The notes under the pieces: generated by a model
What the model was told of the DNA's origin: nothing
What the model saw: only the letters and a program-made list of their open reading frames with translations
Databases searched by the model: none
DNA from: an uncultured delta proteobacterium
GTDB lineage: Bacteria > Desulfobacterota > Desulfobacteria > Desulfobacterales > B30-G6
Direction: 5' to 3'
Assembly (NCBI GenBank): GCA_963823335.1
Contig: CAWGLD010000004.1
Coordinates: forward strand, 4,382 to 68,381
Length of the DNA: 64,000 bases
Made by a program: the position numbers and the translations under genes
Part shown: piece by piece, positions 7,817 to 63,549 of the stretch
Layout: the number at the start of each line of letters is the position of its first letter
Position numbering within the stretch: the stretch's first letter is position 1

Positions 7817-7860
7817 GGGTTCAAGGGTCCCGGGGGAGGGTGATACAAGGGTTCGAGGGT
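7817..7860 (+). repeat. G-tract module, family A copy 1 (GGGTTCAAGGGTCC..AGGGTGATACAAGGGTTCGAGGGT)
   Basis: Starts 5 nt after the stop at 7812. Near-identical copies at 20002-20040 and 37097-37135. Confidence 0.85.
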
Positions 7861-7905
7861 AGCTGACAGCTATCAGCGGCTTATCCGAACTGGGAGGAAA
7901 AATAT

Positions 7906-17250: not shown

Positions 17251-17326
17251 TTATTTGACACAACACGCAATTTTGCGCTACAGTGGCCCTGTTTCCAACA
17301 ATGTCACGCACCATTGAAAGTTTTTT

Positions 17327-17398
17327 TCGCAACAATTTGCGAGGAATGTTCTGCCGTCCGGCAGTGCTTCGCAGCGACCGCAAGGAATTCTGTCTAAC
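17327..17398 (+). repeat. Palindromic module family E, copy E1 (partial)
   Basis: GAGGAATGTTCTGCCGTCCGGCAGTGCTTCGCAGCGACCGCAAGGAATTCTGTCTAA matches 27935-27990 and 41381-41436, with a compensatory hairpin change. Confidence 0.85.
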
Positions 17399-17402
17399 TC
17401 AG

Positions 17403-17654
17403 ATGCCAAAAAGAAACTCGCCACTACAGTTGAGGTGGGGAATATTGCTGCTTCTTGCAGGTCTGGGTGTTTTTTTTATGACACCCCAGAAAATGCAAGA
17501 GATTGAAAAGATAGAGCACTTTTCTTCATATATTCCTTTTATCTGGTTCTGTTTTTACTTTATGAGCATTCTGCTCATCGGCGGCGGGGTCAAAAAAATC
17601 TATCATAATTGTCGGCGCTCTGAGAATTCGAATGAAGCCGAAAACCAAAAATGA
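17403..17654 (+). CDS. Small membrane protein (hypothetical)
   Basis: The track ORF (17283) begins inside repeat E1. ATG 17403 yields an 83-aa protein with two TM helices. Confidence 0.35.
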   Translation: MPKRNSPLQLRWGILLLLAGLGVFFMTPQKMQEIEKIEHFSSYIPFIWFCFYFMSILLIGGGVKKIYHNCRRSENSNEAENQK

Positions 17655-19997: not shown

Positions 19998-20001
19998 TAC
20001 A

Positions 20002-20040
20002 GGGTTCAAGGGTCCGAGGGTGATACAAGGGTTCGAGGGT
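20002..20040 (+). repeat. G-tract module, family A copy 2
   Basis: Begins 5 nt after the stop at 19997. Five GGG runs. Confidence 0.85.
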
Positions 20041-20060
20041 GTGTTCTGGGGGAGGGTGAT

Positions 20061-20084
20061 GTAGCGCGGCGCTTTAGCGCTGCA
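20061..20084. repeat. GTAGCGC...GCGCTGCA hairpin module (family F)
   Basis: GTAGCGCGGCGCTTTAGCGCTGCA. A related module, GTAGCGCAGGTCTTCAGACCTGC...CTGCGCTAG, lies at 49340-49380. Confidence 0.6.
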
Positions 20085-20095
20085 TTACTCGTTTT

Positions 20096-20140
20096 CATTC
20101 GATGTTGGATGTTCAGCGTTCGATGTTGGACGTTCATCTT
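20096..20140 (+). repeat. Solo arm of palindrome family D (TCGATGTTGGACGT words)
   Basis: CATTCGATGTTGGATGTTCAGCGTTCGATGTTGGACGTTCATCTT matches the right arm of the complete palindrome at 63474-63513. Confidence 0.8.
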
Positions 20141-20197
20141 CATGATATCATGACAGAAGGCCCTGTCTTCTTTCTCGGACTGATTCCGCCAGAAAAA

Positions 20198-26810: not shown

Positions 26811-26903
26811 TTTATATTTTAGGCTTTTCTCCCGATTTGTTGTAGAAATGCTGTTGGTGGAAGCCTTGTCGAAATCGGGATCGCTATCGGGATCGGGATC
26901 GAG

Positions 26904-27299
26904 ATGGTATTAGGTCATGAAAAATTAGACGTTTACCGCCTTTCAATCGGCTATGTCGCATGGGTTTATGAAAAGTGTGCCAGGCTGAGAGGCGTCCATC
27001 GTTCAGCAAGAGACCAGTGGCTTCGAGCCAGCCAGTCGATTGCGCTTAATATTGCAGAAGGCAACGGTAAGACAGCGAAGGCTGATCGGCGGCGATATTT
27101 CGAAATAGCGCGTGGGTCGGCATTGGAGTGTGCCGCAATCCAAGATGTCTTGGTAGTCGGAAAAGGTTTGGATAAAGTAGAAAGCCGGCAGCGCAAAGGT
27201 GAATTGGACCGCATTGCTGCAATGCTTAGTCGATTGGGCGGCAGGGGTTATAGCGTAAAGGAAGGGTTCGGGGAATACGGCTATACTGAACGGCAATAG
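26904..27299 (+). CDS. Four-helix-bundle protein (23S rRNA intervening-sequence protein / Avd-like family)
   Basis: KLDVYRLS...QWLRASQSIALNIAEGNGK...RRYFEIARGSALECAA, the family signature recalled for PF05635/TIGR02436-type proteins. Confidence 0.9.
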   Translation: MVLGHEKLDVYRLSIGYVAWVYEKCARLRGVHRSARDQWLRASQSIALNIAEGNGKTAKADRRRYFEIARGSALECAAIQDVLVVGKGLDKVESRQRKGELDRIAAMLSRLGGRGYSVKEGFGEYGYTERQ

Positions 27300-27403
27300 C
27301 GAGCGCATTCCCCGTAGCTTGCTGCGGGGTTAGCGAGCGAATCAAATAGATAAAATCCTTACCGCGAAGATTCCCTGCAGCTTGCTGCAGGGTACTCTTC
27401 AAT
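27298..27403 (-). repeat. Palindromic module family E, copy E2 (inverted relative to E3/E4)
   Basis: The reverse complement reads ATTGAAGAGTACCCTGCAGCAAGCTGCAGGGAAT...TTCGCTCGCTAACCCCGCAGCAAGCTACGGGGAATGCGCTCGCT. Confidence 0.8.
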
Positions 27404-27609
27404 TCGATCCCGATCCCGATCCCGATAGCGATTTCGATAAGATATAGCCCGAGCTGTATTTCTCTTGACCCGAATTTTGGAGCCCTTTCCTCCAACTAAA
27501 TTGGGAGAAGATCCATATTTTATTCCCGCATTATAATAGATATCTCCTAATTTCCGAGATCTCAATAGAATGCGATACAGCTCCAACAAAACAAGGTTAA
27601 CAGACCCCT

Positions 27610-27701: not shown

Positions 27702-27910
27702 GGTAATAATTTTCTTGACATTGCCCGGAGCCCATAATATTTAAATTTTAATGTCGTGCTCATCTGAAGCTCAATCTCACCTCCAATGCGACCTACATCT
27801 TCTAGCTCTAATTTCGCTAATTTAATTCTGCATCGTACCGCACTTTCTGAACCTCTCCGCTAAAGTAGATAACGGTTTCTCGCATTTTTTTACCTAATAA
27901 TCAGGTGAGG

Positions 27911-28055
27911 ATTGAAGAACCTCGCAGCAAGCTACGAGGAATGTTCTGCTGTGCGACAGTGCTTCGCAGCGACCGTAAGGAATTCTGTCTAATTTAGATT
28001 CGCTCGCTAACCCCGCAGTAGGCTACGGGGAATGCGCTCGCTGTTGCGGTTCAAT
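27911..28055 (+). repeat. Palindromic module family E, copy E3 (full length)
   Basis: Three hairpins: CCTCG-CAGCAAGCTA-CGAGG, CTGCTG-TG-CGACAG and CCCCG-CAGTAGGCTA-CGGGG. Nearly identical to 41357-41525. Confidence 0.85.
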
Positions 28056-31910: not shown

Positions 31911-32834
31911 CTAAAAACGTGAGATGTGAGACGTAAGACGTGAGACGGGGAGCAGAGGGTATGTCGTCAAAACATCAATTTGATGAATCAGGTAATCAGA
32001 AAAAAAAGCGTCAGACCAAAGACTCAACTTATCTTGATGCGCTACATTCCTCAAGAATGGCTCAACGTCTTTTTTGGCCAGATCGAAATCAATCTCCTTG
32101 ATCTTGGCAGACAGCAGTTCAAGCAGTTTTTCTCTGGTCAACGCCTCGGAGGTATCAATATGACCTGTTTGCACCATCTTGTTTTTAAGAAATCCCAGAT
32201 CACATGGGGTATTGTTTTTCACAAACCAAACTAAATCATACCAATCCCGGCCCTTGATGTTGGTTCTCACGGTTCGGCACAATAGTGCATGCATTTTGCC
32301 GGCAAGCAGACAGGGCAGTGTCATGGTTTTAATGGTAAACGGAATCGGATTCAGATGATATTTGGTGTCACTGGCAAACCCTGTGACCGGATCTTGATCA
32401 ATTTCCAATTTGATCTTCATCACGGCATTTTTATGGGTTTTCAGATTTGAATCAATTTTTAATAAATGGATCAGTGTATTGGCTTTTATAAAAGCCGAGT
32501 CTACCGTGCTTTTATTCTTTTTGTTGATTTCTTCTGTGGAAACCTCAAAACCCCACAACGCCAGCTCTGATTTTACCGCTTCAAGATACTTTTTAAGGTT
32601 GAAGTCCTTTTCCGGCTGAATTAGAGAAAAATCTACATCCTCGGAGAAACGATCCAACTTGTGAAGAATTCGTAATGCGCTTCCCCCGTAAAAAACAGCT
32701 TTTTCATAAAATTTTGAACGCCATAAACCAAGCAGAATGATCTCCTGTATGATCTCTTTCAACGCATTTTCATGATCATGAATTGTGTGCAATTCATACC
32801 TGCGGAGCATTTGATCAACCTTATCATCAAACAT
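31911..32834 (-). CDS. AbiEii/AbiGii-family nucleotidyltransferase toxin (type IV TA / abortive infection)
   Basis: FYGGSALRILHKLDRFSEDVDFSL (the NTase motif of DUF1814). 8-nt overlap with the upstream antitoxin. The last roughly 12 codons run into a CGTGAGA word repeat. Confidence 0.85.
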   Translation of the reverse strand: MFDDKVDQMLRRYELHTIHDHENALKEIIQEIILLGLWRSKFYEKAVFYGGSALRILHKLDRFSEDVDFSLIQPEKDFNLKKYLEAVKSELALWGFEVSTEEINKKNKSTVDSAFIKANTLIHLLKIDSNLKTHKNAVMKIKLEIDQDPVTGFASDTKYHLNPIPFTIKTMTLPCLLAGKMHALLCRTVRTNIKGRDWYDLVWFVKNNTPCDLGFLKNKMVQTGHIDTSEALTREKLLELLSAKIKEIDFDLAKKDVEPFLRNVAHQDKLSLWSDAFFSDYLIHQIDVLTTYPLLPVSRLTSHISRF

Positions 32835-33444
32835 GGCCTTCCTTTACGCAGTTGACCAGCAGCTTTATGCCCTGCCTGCCATATACGGCTGAGATTTCTT
32901 CCAACAATGATATTTCAAGATTCCTGCCGCCACTGTAATCCAATCGCATCAATTCCAGGTATTCCTTCATTTCATTTTTTGTTGAAATATGAGGCTGTGC
33001 CGCTGTGATATCGCATAACGCTTTTTCAGGGGAAGCAATCAGGATATTTTTATGATCCCCTGCATCCTCAAGCCGAATACCAATATTGAACGCTGCCTTT
33101 GGACAATACAAATAAGAAAATCGGCCCACCTGAGTCTCAAACTGCTTTTTTCTTTTTGCCGTCATGCTGATGATGAGCTCAACACGCTCTGGTATCATGT
33201 CCCAGAATGCCAATGCAGTTTGACCCGTGATGTAAGACGGTCCATAAATCAGATTTGCCAAGACAAACTTGTTGTATGGCTTGTTATACACCTTGCCCAG
33301 TACGTAAAGCCCTTTTTTAACCCTTAAAATATCTTTATTCTGGATGAGACTTCGGATCTTGTCTCTGGGTTTTTTGTAATCCCTTAACGCGTGCAGCAGC
33401 AAATTGTAATCAAATTCCGCAGGTAGTTGTATTAAGTTATTCAT
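32827..33444 (-). CDS. AbiEi-family antitoxin (transcriptional regulator-like)
   Basis: 205 aa. N-terminal wHTH-like segment (IRSLIQNKDILRVKKGLYVL). GPSYITGQTALAFW is typical of AbiEi. Position is immediately 5' of AbiEii. Confidence 0.8.
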   Translation of the reverse strand: MNNLIQLPAEFDYNLLLHALRDYKKPRDKIRSLIQNKDILRVKKGLYVLGKVYNKPYNKFVLANLIYGPSYITGQTALAFWDMIPERVELIISMTAKRKKQFETQVGRFSYLYCPKAAFNIGIRLEDAGDHKNILIASPEKALCDITAAQPHISTKNEMKEYLELMRLDYSGGRNLEISLLEEISAVYGRQGIKLLVNCVKEGHV

Positions 33445-33700
33445 AGTTTTGCAACCAGTATGTCTAATTTTTTGGACATATTGGTTGACTATAAGGTAAT
33501 ATGAGTGAATTTGTCAATGAAAAAGTTCAGGTCGTCTATGCCCGGTGGTGTGAGAGAGGGGGGTCGTGAGGCCTCCCCTACTCGATACTGGATTGTGCAG
33601 CTTGATATATGGATGGTAACCTGTTTTTTTCATCTTGATCATCTCCAACAACCATGGCAGTATCTCAACAGCACCAATCCTCTTCCAAGGAGGTCCCACC

Positions 33701-33934
33701 ATGTCCAGCCACGCATCCAATGCTAAGCTACTCTTCACCAATTGTATCAATCTCAACTCAAGAAGCTGCCGGTATACAAAGAAACCTGAAACTATCCTGT
33801 CCCTGTTCAGCGATCCAGAAAATTTCGCGGTCAGTGATCAGAAGATTCACGAACTGAACGACATATGTTCCCAATGTGATTCATACCATATGCCTGACAA
33901 ATTAAAAGATTTGGATCATCTCCCAAAGAGTTGA
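33701..33934 (+). CDS. Small Cys-rich protein (CX8C...CX2C), 3' end replaced by insertion of cassette C2
   Basis: Strong AAGGAGG lies 8 nt before ATG 33701. The reading frame enters the element at 33913, and removing the element restores ...PDKLKDLQ*. Confidence 0.45.
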   Translation: MSSHASNAKLLFTNCINLNSRSCRYTKKPETILSLFSDPENFAVSDQKIHELNDICSQCDSYHMPDKLKDLDHLPKS

Positions 33935-34174
33935 TCCAAATTAAGGATTCTAGGATTCCAGGAGTCCAGGGTTCGAGTGAGATGAAGTGAGGCATCAGCT
34001 AAATGCTTAAGAAGTATAAAGAGCTAAAAGTCTGGAAAACAAACACTTGAATCCTTGAATCCTGGACTCCTTGTACCCTTTCTCCCAACTAACCCTCATG
34101 TCCGGGGCGGTCACAACGAAGGATGAAAATATTGATGAGAATGATGGCTATTTTCATATAAATTGGGAGAAGAT
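33913..34174 (+). mobile_element. Miniature cassette copy C2 (ORF deleted) with a nested 72-nt insert in the terminal hairpin loop
   Basis: Flanked by ATTAAAAGATTT on both sides (33901-33912 and 34173-34184, with the rightmost AT shared with the element end). Confidence 0.8.
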
Positions 34175-34259
34175 TAAAAGATTTGCAGTGACCGTTGCGA
34201 TTCGTGCTATTTATACTTGCCTTATCTGCTTCCTGTAACTATATTGGATGATTAATTTT

Positions 34260-34454
34260 GGATCATCTCCCAAGGAGTTGATCCAAATTAAGGATTCAAG
34301 GATTCCAGGGGTCCAGGGCTCGAGTGAGATGAAGTGAGGCATCAGCTAAATGCTTAAGAATTATAAAGAGTTAAAAGTCTGGAAAACAAACACTTGAATC
34401 CTTGAATCCTTGACTCCTTGAACCCTTTCTCCCAATCTAATTGGGAGAAGATCC
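34260..34454 (+). mobile_element. Miniature cassette copy C3 (same deletion junction as C2)
   Basis: GGATCATCTCCCAAGGAG...ATGCTTAAGAATTATAAAGAGTTAAAAGTCTGG|AAAACAAACACTTGAATCC...TTGGGAGAAGATCC. Flanks are TTAATTTT / ATAACTTTTT. Confidence 0.8.
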
Positions 34455-34481
34455 ATAACTTTTTACAGAGGAGGATAGACA

Positions 34482-34838
34482 ATGAAGGAGTTTGATGTAG
34501 CGCTGAAAGCAGTAGCAGAAGGTCTGAAAACCATAGCGCAGGGCATGGAGAAGATAGCTGAGAAATTGGAGGAAAGTGTTCCCGATAAACAGGCCAAGGC
34601 TCAGCCTGCGCGTAAACCTGCCAAAAAACCAAAGAAAGTACCGGCAAAGAAAGCTGTGAAAAAAACTGCGGCAGATGCAGTGTTGGCGATAGTCAACAGA
34701 TCAAAAAAGGGTGTCAATGGTGCGACTCTTGCGGAAAAGACAGGCTACGACAGCAAAAAAGTTGCCAATATTGTTTTCAAATTGAGGAAGCAGGGCAAGA
34801 TTAAGAGCGTTGGTCGGGGTGTTTACGCGAAGGCGTAA
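34482..34838 (+). CDS. Histone-H1-like lysine/alanine-rich DNA-binding protein with C-terminal winged-helix-like segment
   Basis: GGAGGA RBS. The central segment is KQAKAQPARKPAKKPKKVPAKKAVKK. Confidence 0.6.
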   Translation: MKEFDVALKAVAEGLKTIAQGMEKIAEKLEESVPDKQAKAQPARKPAKKPKKVPAKKAVKKTAADAVLAIVNRSKKGVNGATLAEKTGYDSKKVANIVFKLRKQGKIKSVGRGVYAKA

Positions 34839-37085: not shown

Positions 37086-37096
37086 GTGGCAAATAA

Positions 37097-37135
37097 GGGT
37101 TAAAGGGTCCGAGGGTGATACAAGGGTTAGAGGGT
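37097..37135 (+). repeat. G-tract module, family A copy 3
   Basis: Begins 12 nt after the stop at 37085: GGGTTAAAGGGTCCGAGGGTGATACAAGGGTTAGAGGGT. Confidence 0.85.
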
Positions 37136-37140
37136 GGCTG

Positions 37141-37405
37141 ACGGCGATGAACCTCCACCCGAGGATCGGGTGGGCTCAAGAAGCCCCCTCGAAGGGGGCT
37201 GGAATATCCAATATCGAATATCGAATACATGAATTTCGAAGTGATGCTTCCCGGTTTTTAGAATAAAGGAAGATAGAGCGCAGCGATACAACACTTCAAT
37301 ATTGAACATTCCTTGTTCGACATTCGATATTTTCCTTTTTAATTTTCACCGTATCGGTAGAACCTTTCCGGGTTCTCCACCATGGTTGGAAGTTTTTAGA
37401 TCAGA
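37141..37405 (+). repeat. Mosaic element family B, copy B1 (complete: hairpins, ATATCGAA-word arms, short ORF remnant, tail hairpins)
   Basis: Arms at 37203-37227 and 37315-37333 are inverted. GCCCCCTCGAAGGGGGC hairpin. The tail GAACCTTTCCGGGTTCTCCACC...TTTTAGATCAGAA is shared with B2 and B4. Confidence 0.8.
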
Positions 37406-39402: not shown

Positions 39403-39565
39403 GTTCTCCTCAGCTTATGGAACAAAAGAAGATAGAGCGCAGCGATACAACACGTCAATATTCTACATTCCTTGTTCGATATTCATTATTCTCTTTTGTT
39501 TTCACCGGATCGGTAGAACCTTTCCGGGTCCTCCACCGGAGGTGGAGCTTTTAGATCAGAAATAA
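39403..39565 (+). repeat. Family B copy B2 (right half)
   Basis: CAGCTTATGGAACAAAAGAAGATAGAGCGCAGCGATACAACACGTCAATATTCTACATTCCTTGTTCGATATTC...CTCCACCGGAGGTGGAGCTTTTAGATCAGAA. Confidence 0.85.
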
Positions 39566-41273: not shown

Positions 41274-41356
41274 ATTCGCTTTGCAAATTTATTAAATGCG
41301 ACTTCGTCGCTTCTATCGACGAAAGGTAGATAACGGATCCAAAAGGCCCGGCACTG

Positions 41357-41525
41357 ATTGAAGAACCTCGCAGCAAGCTACGAGGAATGTTCTGTCGTGC
41401 GACAGTGCTTCGCAGCGACCGTAAGGAATTCTGTCTAATTTAGATTCGCTCGCTAACCCCGCAGCATGCGAAGCACTGCCGGACGGCAGAACCTACGGGG
41501 AATGCGCTCGCTGTTGCGGTTCAAC
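41357..41525 (+). repeat. Family E copy E4, with a 28-nt nested insert in the third hairpin loop
   Basis: Identical to E3 except for a CT/TC swap and the insert CATGCGAAGCACTGCCGGACGGCAGAAC (41465-41492). Confidence 0.85.
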
Positions 41526-42687: not shown

Positions 42688-42930
42688 TGGATCATCTCCA
42701 GAAGAGTTAATCCAAACTGAGTCTCCACCCGCGGAGCGGGCGGGCTCAGGATGCCCCCTCGAAGGGGGCTATAATATCCAATATCGACTATCGATTACAT
42801 GAATTTCGAAGTGATGGTTCTCAGCTTATGGTACAAAAGAAGATAGAGCGCAGCGATACCACACGTCAATATTCTACATTCCTTGTTCGATATTCATTAT
42901 TCTCTTTTATTTTCACCCGATCGGTATTCG
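42688..42930 (+). repeat. Family B copy B3, with a cassette-type left terminus GGATCATCTCCAGAAGAGTTAATCC
   Basis: It combines the C-family terminus with B-family internal modules. The right tail is truncated before the ABC permease start. Confidence 0.8.
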
Positions 42931-59600: not shown

Positions 59601-59695
59601 ATTTTGAATTAAATGAATCAAATCCTTTGAAAGATGGGTTGCCGAACCCCAAGGAAGATCTGAACCGCCATTTAGGTAAAAGAAAGGAGAGAGCC

Positions 59696-60106
59696 ATGGA
59701 CTACGCCTACCAACGACTGGACATCTGGAAAAAGGCGGTCGATCTTTCCATCAAGGTCATTCAATGTATCGCCGAAGTGGCCAATGAGGTTGAAACACAG
59801 CGCCTTACCGAGGAAATCGAAATGAGTGCCGTCAATATTGCCACAAACATCGCCAAGGGAAAAGCCTGTTTGTCGGAGGAGGATTTCATTTATTATCTGT
59901 TTTTGTCAAAAAGATCACTGTATGAAACCATGACACTGCTGGAAATTCTCAAAGCCAAACAGTTGATTACCGACGAGTGCTACATGGAAATCGAAACAAA
60001 AGGAAAAAACATCACTGGAATGCTGATTGAATTTATCCGCTCAGTCAAAGAAACCGGCAGCCCCTATCAGGCAGAAAACTACCAGGCTGCTTACAGAAAC
60101 CGATAG
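59696..60106 (+). CDS. Four-helix-bundle protein (divergent 23S-IVS-protein/Avd-like), copy a
   Basis: RLDIWKKAVDLSIKV...SAVNIATNIAKGK...FLSKRSLYETMTLLEIL. AAGGAGAG RBS before ATG 59696 (the track start at 59627 is less likely). Confidence 0.8.
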   Translation: MDYAYQRLDIWKKAVDLSIKVIQCIAEVANEVETQRLTEEIEMSAVNIATNIAKGKACLSEEDFIYYLFLSKRSLYETMTLLEILKAKQLITDECYMEIETKGKNITGMLIEFIRSVKETGSPYQAENYQAAYRNR

Positions 60107-60121
60107 AACAAAAGGAGATAA

Positions 60122-60514
60122 ATGATGACCTATATCTATGAAAAGCTCGACGTCTGGCAAAAAGCCATGCAGTTTGCCGGGGATGTCATTGATTCCATGT
60201 CGATGATGAACAGCAAAGACTACCATCAAGAGATTTTAGAGAAAACAGAAGGGAGTGCAGCCGGTATCGCCGGCGCCATTGCCATGGGAAAATCCTACAG
60301 TTCAAAACACGATTTCGCCAGACATCTGTATCATTCCAGGGGCGCCTTGTACGAAACCATGACTCTGTTGGAGTTGTTGAAACGTAAACGCCTCGTTGCC
60401 GAAGATAAATTTGCTGATTTCGACACCAGGGCAAACCAACTGACCGCCATGCTGACCGCCCTGATTAAATCGATTTACACACCCAAATCGGACAATGGCA
60501 AACAATCATCATAA
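60122..60514 (+). CDS. Four-helix-bundle protein, copy b (paralogue of copy a)
   Basis: KLDVWQKAMQFAGDV...GAIAMGKSYSSKHDFARHLYHSRGALYETMTLLELL. AAGGAGA RBS. Confidence 0.8.
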   Translation: MMTYIYEKLDVWQKAMQFAGDVIDSMSMMNSKDYHQEILEKTEGSAAGIAGAIAMGKSYSSKHDFARHLYHSRGALYETMTLLELLKRKRLVAEDKFADFDTRANQLTAMLTALIKSIYTPKSDNGKQSS

Positions 60515-61157
60515 GCGTCAACCTCCTGAGATGAGGCTGATAATTTCAGTCGATTACAGAGAAAGGCCTTCCGGACTTCCCGATCTTCTGGTTGATGCAG
60601 GATTTGAGGTGGCTATAGTCAAGCTCCCTTATTGTGACTACATAATTAACCATGGAATATCCATCGAAAGAAAAACCGGCAGGGATTTCGCTATCTCAAT
60701 CATCGACGGCAGACTATTTAAACAGGCCAGTTGGATGCGAAAGCGAACCAATCGGCCTGTTTTTCTCCTGGAAGGAAGTCCGTTTCATGTCGATGTGGAC
60801 ATACATAAGAAGGCGATTAAGGGCGCAATGCTTTCTATACAAGTCGCATGGAGCATCCCCATCATTTATTCTCGATCTATGGAGGAAACATGCAATATTT
60901 TCAGAACACTGGCAACCCAGCAGGAAAACCAGACCGAACGCCTGGAACTCAGGCACGGTTTTCGATCCAAACGGATGATCTCAAAACGGTTGTATCTTCT
61001 ACAAGGGCTTCCAAATATTGGTCCGGTTATGGCTCTGAGATTGATCAGACATTTTAAAACAGTCCACCGTGTTATGAACGCCAGTATCGATGAATTAACG
61101 GAAGTGGATGGCATTGGGGAAGATACTGCTGATAAGATCCAGGAAATTCTCCGGTAA
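60495..61157 (+). CDS. ERCC4-domain (XPF/Mus81/Hef-type) nuclease with C-terminal (HhH)2
   Basis: VDYRE...CDYII...ISIERKTGRDFAISIIDGRLFKQ...PVFLLEG. The HhH segment is LQGLPNIGPVMALRL...EVDGIGEDTADKI. Overlaps 4HB-b by 20 nt (alternative ATG at 60531). Confidence 0.9.
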   Translation: MANNHHKRQPPEMRLIISVDYRERPSGLPDLLVDAGFEVAIVKLPYCDYIINHGISIERKTGRDFAISIIDGRLFKQASWMRKRTNRPVFLLEGSPFHVDVDIHKKAIKGAMLSIQVAWSIPIIYSRSMEETCNIFRTLATQQENQTERLELRHGFRSKRMISKRLYLLQGLPNIGPVMALRLIRHFKTVHRVMNASIDELTEVDGIGEDTADKIQEILR

Positions 61158-63381: not shown

Positions 63382-63513
63382 ATGAACATCGAACATCGAA
63401 CGTCCAACATTGAATTTTGAATTTAAAAAGATGAAGAAACAGAAATATTTCGATATTGGTTTTTTTGTTTCCATTCGACATTGGACGTTCGATGTTCGAT
63501 GTTGGACGTTCAT
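63382..63513. repeat. Complete palindrome of family D (arms of TCGATGT/TGGACGT words, about 59-nt loop)
   Basis: The left arm ATGAACATCGAACATCGAACGTCCAACATTGAA and the right arm TTCGACATTGGACGTTCGATGTTCGATGTTGGACGTTCAT share a 23-nt perfect complementary core. Confidence 0.85.
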
Positions 63514-63549
63514 CTTTATAAAATCATCGTTGTCCGGAGGATTTTATTT

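Follow-up and report, generated by a model that had tools for sequence, protein, structure and literature searches.

The element C2 occupies positions 33913-34176 (+ strand) of a 64,000-nt stretch of DNA from an uncultured delta proteobacterium (contig CAWGLD010000004.1 of assembly GCA_963823335.1, positions 4,382 to 68,381), the whole of which is called the window below. In our interpretation C2 is probably a copy of a non-autonomous DNA transposon of the kind known as MITEs (miniature inverted-repeat transposable elements) or mobile insertion cassettes (MICs), namely a gutted cassette of a PF05635 gene bordered by an 8-bp target duplication. The family to which C2 belongs, referred to as the C family, derives from a cassette with a gene of the PF05635 family (23S-rRNA-IVS protein, Avd-like; IVS, intervening sequence), occupies multiple insertion sites, and transposes into A/T-rich DNA with duplication of 8 bp. 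An earlier note on this DNA, made from the sequence alone, had described the insertion and proposed that the family transposes with target duplication; the identity of the cassette, a decayed PF05635 gene inside an IVS-like hairpin, had escaped it.

Junctions and anatomy of C2

Both boundaries of C2 are abutted exactly by copies of ATTAAAAGATTT (33901-33912 and 34173-34184), which, as the earlier note had claimed, bound the element on both sides and form a unique pair in the 64 kb (0.02 expected by chance). The identity of the flanks extends over 12 nt, or 13 nt if the following G is counted, and contains the octamer that we regard as the duplication proper, AAAGATTT, at 33905-33912 on the left and 34177-34184 on the right. 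The element begins with GGATCATCTCCCAA at 33913. In four other samples, short-read contigs that start in the neighbouring gene reach ~26 nt into the element, thus the left junction is real and not an assembly artefact. For the right junction, look-ups of the open reading frame (ORF) spanning the loop insert described below and the junction found no record. The C2 insertion is fixed in the source organism, i.e. it is present in all samples containing that organism.

C2 (264 nt, or ~192-195 nt without the insert in its right-hand loop) can be aligned with two sibling copies in the window, C1 (28431-28762) and C3 (34260-34454), both on the + strand. Alignment, BLAST comparison with full-length and other copies and RNA folding (z = -4.8) delimit the same element, whose parts, all on the + strand, are arranged as follows. 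The left terminal inverted repeat (TIR) with its local hairpin, GGATCATCTCCCAAAGAGTTGATCC (33913-33937), forms in every fold, and is invariant across 12 aligned copies, partly because the search pattern selected for it. The 5' arm of the central stem (33943-33979), made of degenerate GGATTC/GGGTCC-type units, pairs in the folds with the 3' arm (34044-34080), which in intact copies also codes for the last residues, ...ENKHLNP and the stop. Lying within the stem is the remnant of the four-helix-bundle gene, MLKKYKELKVWKTNT (34003-34050, including the stop), in which N-terminal codons are fused to the last codons, so that the PF05635 gene is reduced to 15 codons. The right terminal hairpin, TCTCCCAA...TTGGGAGA, followed by the terminal AGATTA (34081-34176), was delimited by alignment and comparison of the ends, and includes the right TIR, TTGGGAGAAGATTA (34163-34176; family consensus ...GATCC). 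Between the two ends, GGATCATCTCCCAA agrees with the reverse complement GGATCTTCTCCCAA at 13 of 14 positions in C1 and C3; the right end of C2 reads TAATCTTCTCCCAA.

A dispersed family with an 8-bp target duplication

Further copies were collected using the left-end pattern; in pattern form the end motifs of the family are GGATC(A/T)TCTCCCAA and GG[ACT]TCTTCTCCC. The scan of reference genomes yielded six copies in two related metagenome-assembled genomes (MAGs), both named uncultured delta proteobacterium MFD03804 (CAWKCS01 and CAVUUM01), the scan of metagenomes added 20 contigs, and look-ups of close protein homologues added the loci L040, L047 and L048 (L numbers denote the 48 fetched loci). 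The copies found by the pattern scans stand at unrelated loci. No element was found in viruses (IMG/VR), and plasmids showed only coding-region similarity to Nostoc four-helix-bundle genes.

To measure the duplication, the ends were anchored at GGATC... and ...GATCC, and in each of 17 independent complete insertions the 8 nt beyond one end were set against the 8 nt beyond the other. The flanks matched at 108 of 136 positions, against a permuted mean of 62.8 +/- 6.2, and in 50,000 permutations the observed total was never reached. Eight of the 17 insertions have perfect duplications, namely C2 (AAAGATTT), E0 (ATATTTTA), L009 (TTATCTCA), L010 (AAAAGAAT), L025 (GTATTTAA), L030 (CAAAAATA), L040 (ATATTTTA) and L047 (AAATTACG). 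With the 7/8 matches of L014 and L033 the number rises to ten with at least 7/8, and with the 6/8 matches of C3 (TTAATTTT and ATAACTTT), L011 and L048 to 13 with at least 6/8. C1, with 3/8, L012, L013 and L015 have no recognisable repeat. The duplicated octamers are 90% A/T, and the target sequences differ between copies.

Identical deletion forms recur at several sites: the 195-nt form in C2 (which also carries the loop insert), C3 and L033, the 332-nt form in C1 and L030, and an identical 271-nt form at two sites of one MAG (L010 and L011). The miniature forms thus moved after the deletions had taken place. The 332-nt form, which lacks a repeat at C1, is flanked by the perfect CAAAAATA duplication at another locus, L030. 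The proposal of transposition with target duplication is in this way borne out by 195-nt and 332-nt forms that stand at different loci and in different genomes with their own flanking repeats.

C2, taken by the earlier note as the clearest evidence for this within the window, does not stand alone. E0 (693 nt, 26822-27514, + strand; 26814-27522 with its flanks) is equally clean and still carries a live ORF, an intact PF05635 gene at 26904-27299. Its TIRs, GGCTTTTCTCCCGA and TTGGGAGAAGATCC, have 17-nt arms (82% identity), its 38-nt stem consists of GGGATC units, and its ATATTTTA duplication is a perfect 8 bp (26814-26821 and 27515-27522). The protein of E0 has no detectable BLASTP similarity to the C-family protein, and the two share the same chassis of TIRs, stem and 8-bp duplication.

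Derivation from a PF05635 cassette

The parent cassette is ~510 bp long and consists of TIRs of 14-17 nt (GGATCATCTCCCAA ... TTGGGAGAAGATCC), each with a small local hairpin, and a ~35-bp stem within which lies one ORF of ~123 codons. The only ORF ever seen inside the element is the four-helix-bundle gene or its remnants. Full-length copies with a PF05635 ORF are L009 and L047; L009, one of the six copies from the two related MAGs, measures 510 nt, and its complete ORF matches PF05635 with E = 1.7e-40 and TIGR02436 (four helix bundle protein) with 5e-40. C1 (332 nt) has kept more of both gene ends than C2, the N-terminal MLKNYKELNVWKKAYKLCLD... and the C-terminal ...LREALGNVERMLKAMITSLENKHLNP with its stop. 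C3 (195 nt) is of the C2 type, and the centre shared by C2 and C3 reads ATG CTT AAG AA(G/T) TAT AAA GAG (C/T)TA AAA GTC TGG AAA, joined to ACA AAC ACT TGA. The C2/C3 form is the product of a deletion whose end points are two CTGGAAAA repeats, located in the N-terminal VWK codons and in the C-terminal LENK codons, and C2 itself is a miniature deletion derivative of the PF05635-gene cassette.

The RNA fold of the family has three parts, a left hairpin (GGATCA...TGATCC), the ~35-bp stem that encloses the ORF, and a right hairpin (TCTCCCAA-CTAA-TTGGGAGA); the z-scores of the copies range from -4.8 to -7.2. The ends of 12 copies are 95% identical, which is too little variation for stem covariation. 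The sole structural argument for the stem comes from E0, where the same place is taken by a stem of GGGATC units, unrelated in sequence.

The site of the C2 insertion

C2 lies at the end of a small Cys-rich ORF (33701-33934 as now read, + strand; 77 aa, CX8C...CX2C), which is preceded by the Shine-Dalgarno sequence AAGGAGG (33688-33694, + strand). Residues 1-64 form a conserved core, and the last six codons belong to the element: the ORF reads ...CDSYHMPDKLKDL and then DHLPKS followed by a stop codon. With the element and one repeat taken out, the sequence runs GAC AAA TTA AAA GAT TTG CAG TGA, i.e. ...DKLKDLQ and a stop, as part of a reconstructed ORF of 72 aa; in the reconstructed empty site a single AAAGATTT stands in ...GACAAATTAAAAGATTTGCAGTGA..., and this site is the same whether the duplication is read as 8 bp or longer. 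The rest of the target (34186-34253, + strand) begins with the CAG TGA that closes the reconstructed ORF (stop at 34189-34191). The translation and the reconstruction both agree with what the earlier note had given.

That note had also placed the element three codons before a stop codon. This is formally true, but overstates the effect of the insertion, because the conserved protein is untouched. Six metagenomic homologues (63-75% identity) share the leader, the ribosome-binding site, CX8C and CX2C with the ORF, and all six are 65 aa long and end in ...CDSYQM[S/N], seven codons short of the reconstructed stop; leader and ribosome-binding site are conserved in the metagenome loci L001 and L004. 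The PDKLKDLQ tail was not found elsewhere, a protein search with the reconstructed 72-aa ORF giving only the 65-aa homologues. The tail is therefore lineage-specific and the insertion lies in an unconserved part of the gene, where it leaves the conserved 64 residues intact and merely exchanges the final Q for DHLPKS. No uninterrupted ...PDKLKDLQ protein, which the earlier note had suggested looking for in related genomes or metagenomes, and no empty site was found in any of the searches, and the databases held no close relative of the locus.

Where the window has the tail, the homologue loci L001-L006 have a tandem paralogue and no element. The paralogous second small gene (31% identical; tandem paralogues in L001, L004 and L005) starts 14 nt downstream and is absent from the window. 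One frame over from the tail, the sequence reads ...KICSDRCDSCYLY..., which is like the C-terminal ...LNDICSQCDSY motif of the family (shuffle p about 0.004-0.013; suggestive only). It is possible that C2 lies in what remained of a second tandem paralogue after that gene was deleted. The small ORF (33701-33895; L001, L004, L005) represents a previously unannotated four-cysteine family of 65-aa proteins, usually encoded as two tandem paralogues, for which no Pfam match was found. Its conserved leader contains TTGATCATCTCCAAC (33634-33649).

The right ends of C1, C3, L009, L012 and L048 are 20-28 nt before a co-oriented start codon (28787 for C1; 34482 for C3, at a distance of 27 nt), just upstream of its Shine-Dalgarno sequence; in L014 the distance is ~75 nt. 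Two explanations suggest themselves: A/T-rich leaders may be preferred as targets, or an effect on the downstream message may have been selected for. A promoter and terminator scan of 33400-34600 gave nothing over background. The left TIR GGATCATCTCCCAA (33913-33926) resembles at 11 of 14 positions the 3' end of 16S rRNA (GGATCACCTCCTTA in E. coli), and the right TIR (34163-34176) is Shine-Dalgarno-like; the likeness could be due to chance, or could bear on translation or on a connection with rRNA.

Immediately upstream of the small ORF, the - strand (31911-33444) carries two overlapping genes, one for a nucleotidyltransferase toxin of the AbiEii family (307 aa, PF08843) and one for a product of 205 aa. 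The latter, upstream of the toxin gene, has no Pfam match, and by position would be the putative antitoxin of an AbiE-type pair.

The loop insert, remnants and related repeats

C2 alone among the aligned copies carries an insert of ~70 nt (34090-34161, + strand) in the loop of its right-end hairpin, between TCTCCCAA and TTGGGAGA. The insert is bordered by TAA on both sides, and its own 8-bp stem, TGAAAATA/TATTTTCA, folds as described in the earlier note, with which alignment and fold agree in placing a 72-nt insert in the loop. The additional claim, that the loop tolerates or attracts nested insertions, is not supported: the loop is occupied in none of the other 16 complete copies, so that one copy of 17 has such an insert. 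A second copy of the insert was not found in the window or in the 48 loci (BLAST with word size 7 gave chance matches alone), and the IMG/VR scan gave no exact match.

Several sites carry one end of the element without the other. In the window, a solitary left-end module, GGATCATCTCCAGAAGAGTTAATCC (42689-42713, + strand), is fused to a different repeat family, and solitary left ends or left halves fused to unrelated sequence or other repeats occur also in L016/L023, L020, L017, L019 and L022; one-ended remnants are common. In L046 (1411-3438) the ORF is 94% identical to that of L009, and the right stem arm is split by an insertion containing a 102-aa ORF and an RVT_1 reverse transcriptase; this insertion is probably a group II intron, with the hairpin as its target.

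Altogether the window contains four PF05635 genes, three decayed copies of the C family and one solitary left end. Two of the PF05635 genes are arranged in tandem (59627-60106 and 60122-60514) without the hairpin and TIR chassis, and are overlapped downstream by an ERCC4 plus helix-hairpin-helix nuclease gene (60495-61157); the region 59627-61157 may represent a different, operon-type use of the four-helix-bundle protein. Other short repeats, with oligomer units GGGTTCAAGGGTCC..., TTCGATGTTGGA... and CCCCGCAGCAAGCTACGGGG..., are found at 7821-7861, 20001-20151, 37096-37396, 39409-39552, 42718-42926 and 63467-63527, and further ones of this type at 17315-17428, 27910-28054 and 41356-41524. They look like the stems or ends of other decayed hairpin cassettes, with which the window is apparently littered. 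At Rfam gathering thresholds the window contains two tRNAs only, and no rRNA.

The transposition enzyme and alternative explanations

From the paired TIRs and the constant duplication of 8 bp one would expect a DDE-type transposase whose cuts are staggered by 8 bp. No transposase domain was detected in the 40 window ORFs scanned against Pfam, and none was noticed in L009-L034, where 33 ORFs of at least 300 aa were listed without a Pfam scan. Since a transposase is thus missing from the element, from the window and, as far as we looked, from the fetched loci, the enzyme would act in trans. In the inward direction the right end has the sequence GGATCTTC, with GGCTCTTC in L040 and GGTTCTTC in L030, L033 and L048. 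According to PMC6305408 (Table 3), ISL3-family elements have termini of the sequence GGCTCTTCG and direct repeats of 8 bp, and a MITE of Microcystis aeruginosa with GGCTCTTCG ends and 8-bp repeats was attributed to ISL3 (PMC11448079). The C-family right end agrees with a terminus of the GGCTCTTCG type at 7-8 of the first 9 bases (GGATCTTCT; GGCTCTTCT in L040). A DDE_Tnp_ISL3 gene was not seen in the window or in any fetched locus. Short terminal similarity and duplication length make an ISL3-family enzyme the leading candidate, to be treated as a lead.

It must be noted that several observations weigh against reading C2 as a MITE moved by a foreign transposase. The left end, GGATCATCT, agrees with the ISL3 terminus at only 6 of 9 bases, and no autonomous partner with matching ends was found in the window or the fetched loci. 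Four of the 17 copies (C1, L012, L013 and L015) have no recognisable duplication. No empty site was found for C2 or any other copy: no orthologous unoccupied site came to light when all fetched loci were compared by BLAST with the window and among themselves, and exact-protein look-ups of two neighbouring genes returned the same organism only, with contigs that break inside the repeats. Under the 8-bp model the 12-13 nt identity at C2 requires a coincidence of roughly 1-3% (the flank being A/T-rich). Finally, two dissimilar PF05635 genes (E0 and the C family) in one chassis are unexpected for a random passenger, and hint that the protein may matter to the element.

In a broader reading, the PF05635 gene is no passenger, but the defining gene of an ancient and widespread class of hairpin mini-transposons that have TIRs and duplicate 8 bp; the classical ORF-bearing 23S rRNA IVSs would be members of this class inserted into rRNA, and the protein would be a transposition factor or would recruit a host enzyme. 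We consider this unlikely, though worth keeping in mind.

It is a rather doubtful proposition, too, that the four-helix-bundle protein is itself the mobility factor, a novel transposase or an obligatory cofactor, and that intact cassettes such as E0, not a classical insertion sequence (IS), mobilise the miniatures. Intact ORFs have been kept in L047, L040, L048 and E0 and there are more than 7,900 close homologues; no other gene was ever found inside the element, and the chassis with its TIRs, stem and 8-bp duplication is shared by two PF05635 genes that lack BLASTP similarity. That the IVS ORF codes for a mobility component is, in the account given in PMC4990558, an old hypothesis (Ralph and McClelland 1993). 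However, the protein is a four-helix bundle of ~120 aa without a known nuclease or integrase fold, many PF05635 genes have no TIR module (L035; the tandem pair at 59627-60514), and a known transposase family explains the GG-TCTTC ends and the 8-bp duplications more simply.

The length of the duplication had been given as 10-12 bp in the earlier note, which was undecided between 10 and 12 bp because the right end of C2 reads GAAGATTA where its siblings read GAAGATCC. We think it distinctly improbable that the family duplicates 10-12 bp and that C2 shows the true length beside a slightly truncated right end. The identity at C2 is perfect over 12 nt, 13 nt with the next G, and the usual CC is missing from its right end, but in all seven other perfect cases the ninth base is mismatched and the identity ends exactly at 8. 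A consensus right end plus 8 bp would read GAAGATCC followed by AAAGATTT; C2 has GAAGATTA followed by AAAGATTT, which is of equal length, so that CC>TA is all that is needed and no truncation has to be assumed. Moreover, the length of a duplication is set by the stagger of the target cuts, so a truncated end would not lengthen it. Variation within the family is greatest in the 4-5 bases that close the right end (ATCC, ATTC, ATCT, AACC, AGCC, ATTA), which differ in half of the copies. Upstream of the octamer the target reads ATTA, and the element end of C2 also has ATTA in place of the usual ATCC, which extends the identity to 12 nt (13 with the G). We infer that the extra ATTA of C2 reflects two substitutions in the variable tip of the element that match the target by chance, and not a longer duplication; it may alternatively have come from a local repair or conversion event.

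There is very little to recommend a mechanism in which an HUH enzyme (IS200/IS605 TnpA or a REP-associated RAYT) acts on the hairpin ends in the form of single-stranded DNA, or an RNA route with a reverse transcriptase and an Avd-like protein. There are small hairpins at both ends, the ORF shows a distant likeness to Avd (PF22296 and NF033474, under the cut-off in each case), and the copy in L046 adjoins an RVT_1 gene. Yet HUH transposition leaves no target duplication, whereas a fixed 8-bp duplication is the rule here and the targets differ; retro-insertion would be expected to produce duplications of variable length and 5' truncations in place of paired TIRs; the reverse transcriptase of L046 interrupts the right stem and is a secondary insertion, not a partner; and with the Avd equivalog the ORF scores 30 bits, where the cut-off is 80. 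It is hardly conceivable that the 12-nt repeat is due to chance or to a pre-existing local duplication and that the element is a vertically inherited regulatory hairpin, as the lack of an empty site and the fixation in all samples would allow, since the 12-mer occurs just twice in 64 kb, exactly at the element boundaries, homologous small-ORF loci in other metagenomes lack the element, and sixteen other insertions at unrelated loci have the same boundary-anchored repeats.

Two further element types were considered and rejected. For an integron cassette, nothing attC-like was seen in the element (no formal attC search was made) and no integrase was found nearby; for a terminator-type repeat, a T-run is missing.

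Proposed origin of C2

Returning to C2 as a miniature transposon, its history could have been the following. Recombination between the two CTGGAAAA repeats would have deleted almost the whole gene, and the resulting ~195-nt form would have retained both ends and the stem and been still capable of transposition. This form would then have entered the small Cys-rich ORF within its unconserved 3' tail, at the A/T-rich octamer AAAGATTT, with a DDE transposase presumably supplied in trans and cutting with an 8-bp stagger, and repair of the staggered cut would have duplicated AAAGATTT. The ~70-nt piece in the loop of the right-end hairpin would be a later arrival. When transcribed, the long stem may be a substrate of RNase III, by analogy with Correia elements and the IVSs of rRNA; once the stem is cut, the downstream message would begin at its 5' end with the right-end hairpin.

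Comparison with known systems

C2 is a MITE or mobile insertion cassette, a known kind of element. Like these, the C family is short, bounded by TIRs and flanked by a duplication of fixed length, has no transposase, and occurs in dispersed copies, including deletion derivatives that consist of the ends only, while the longer forms carry a passenger ORF that is not a transposase. MIC231 of the IS231/IS4 group is an example of mobile insertion cassettes. In the C family, by contrast, the passenger is always a PF05635 gene, it is enclosed in a long stem foreign to ordinary MITE or MIC anatomy, and no cognate IS was found. In the literature covered by a full-text search we found no description of TIRs or 8-bp target duplications for cassettes with a PF05635 gene, the gene of the IVS protein.

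Among IS families and their MITEs the closest likeness is with ISL3 (the Microcystis aeruginosa MITE, PMC11448079; ISArsp7, PMC6305408), with 8-bp direct repeats and a right end of the GG-TCTTC type in common; the 6/9 left end and the failure to see DDE_Tnp_ISL3 in the window or the loci set the C family apart. The Correia elements of Neisseria, MITEs with TIR hairpins cut by RNase III (PMC10969869), are likewise small TIR elements that form a long hairpin near genes when co-transcribed, and many copies of the C family stand, as they do, just upstream of start codons. Unlike the C family, however, they contain no ORF, and there is no sequence similarity between the two. Correia elements duplicate TA.

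The protein belongs to the same four-helix-bundle fold family as Avd of diversity-generating retroelements (DGRs), and the L009 ORF weakly matches the DGR Avd models. The scores are, however, under the cut-offs (33 against 40 bits for PF22296 and 30.4 against 80 bits for NF033474), and neither template and variable repeats nor a cognate reverse transcriptase stand beside the copies. The C-family protein is thus not a DGR Avd.

A further comparison is with 23S rRNA IVSs carrying an S23p/PF05635 ORF (Leptospira, Coxiella burnetii; PMC4990558). They have the same ORF family, a long stem of complementary termini around the ORF and short repeat units in or next to the stem, the ORF tends to decay while the RNA structure persists, and an origin from transposable elements has long been suspected. 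The C-family copies lie outside 23S rRNA, between or at the ends of protein genes, and have an outer TIR module and 8-bp duplications, which we did not find reported for rRNA IVSs in the literature searched. By definition the rRNA IVSs lie in a helix of 23S rRNA (9, 25 or 45); the C family, whose copies are not in rRNA, falls outside that class. The origin of the ORF-bearing rRNA IVSs has been open since the early 1990s, transposition having been proposed but never shown (PMC4990558).

While the single insertion of C2, a MITE in a dispensable gene tail, is ordinary, the family is the interesting part. With the ORF family and stem type of the IVSs combined with TIRs, an 8-bp duplication at 17 chromosomal sites and a graded series of still-mobile deletion forms, the transposition hypothesis becomes testable, and the ISL3 lead provides a concrete candidate enzyme family to seek. 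A mobile cassette of this kind also accounts for the abundance of four-helix-bundle genes and hairpin debris in some large genomes.

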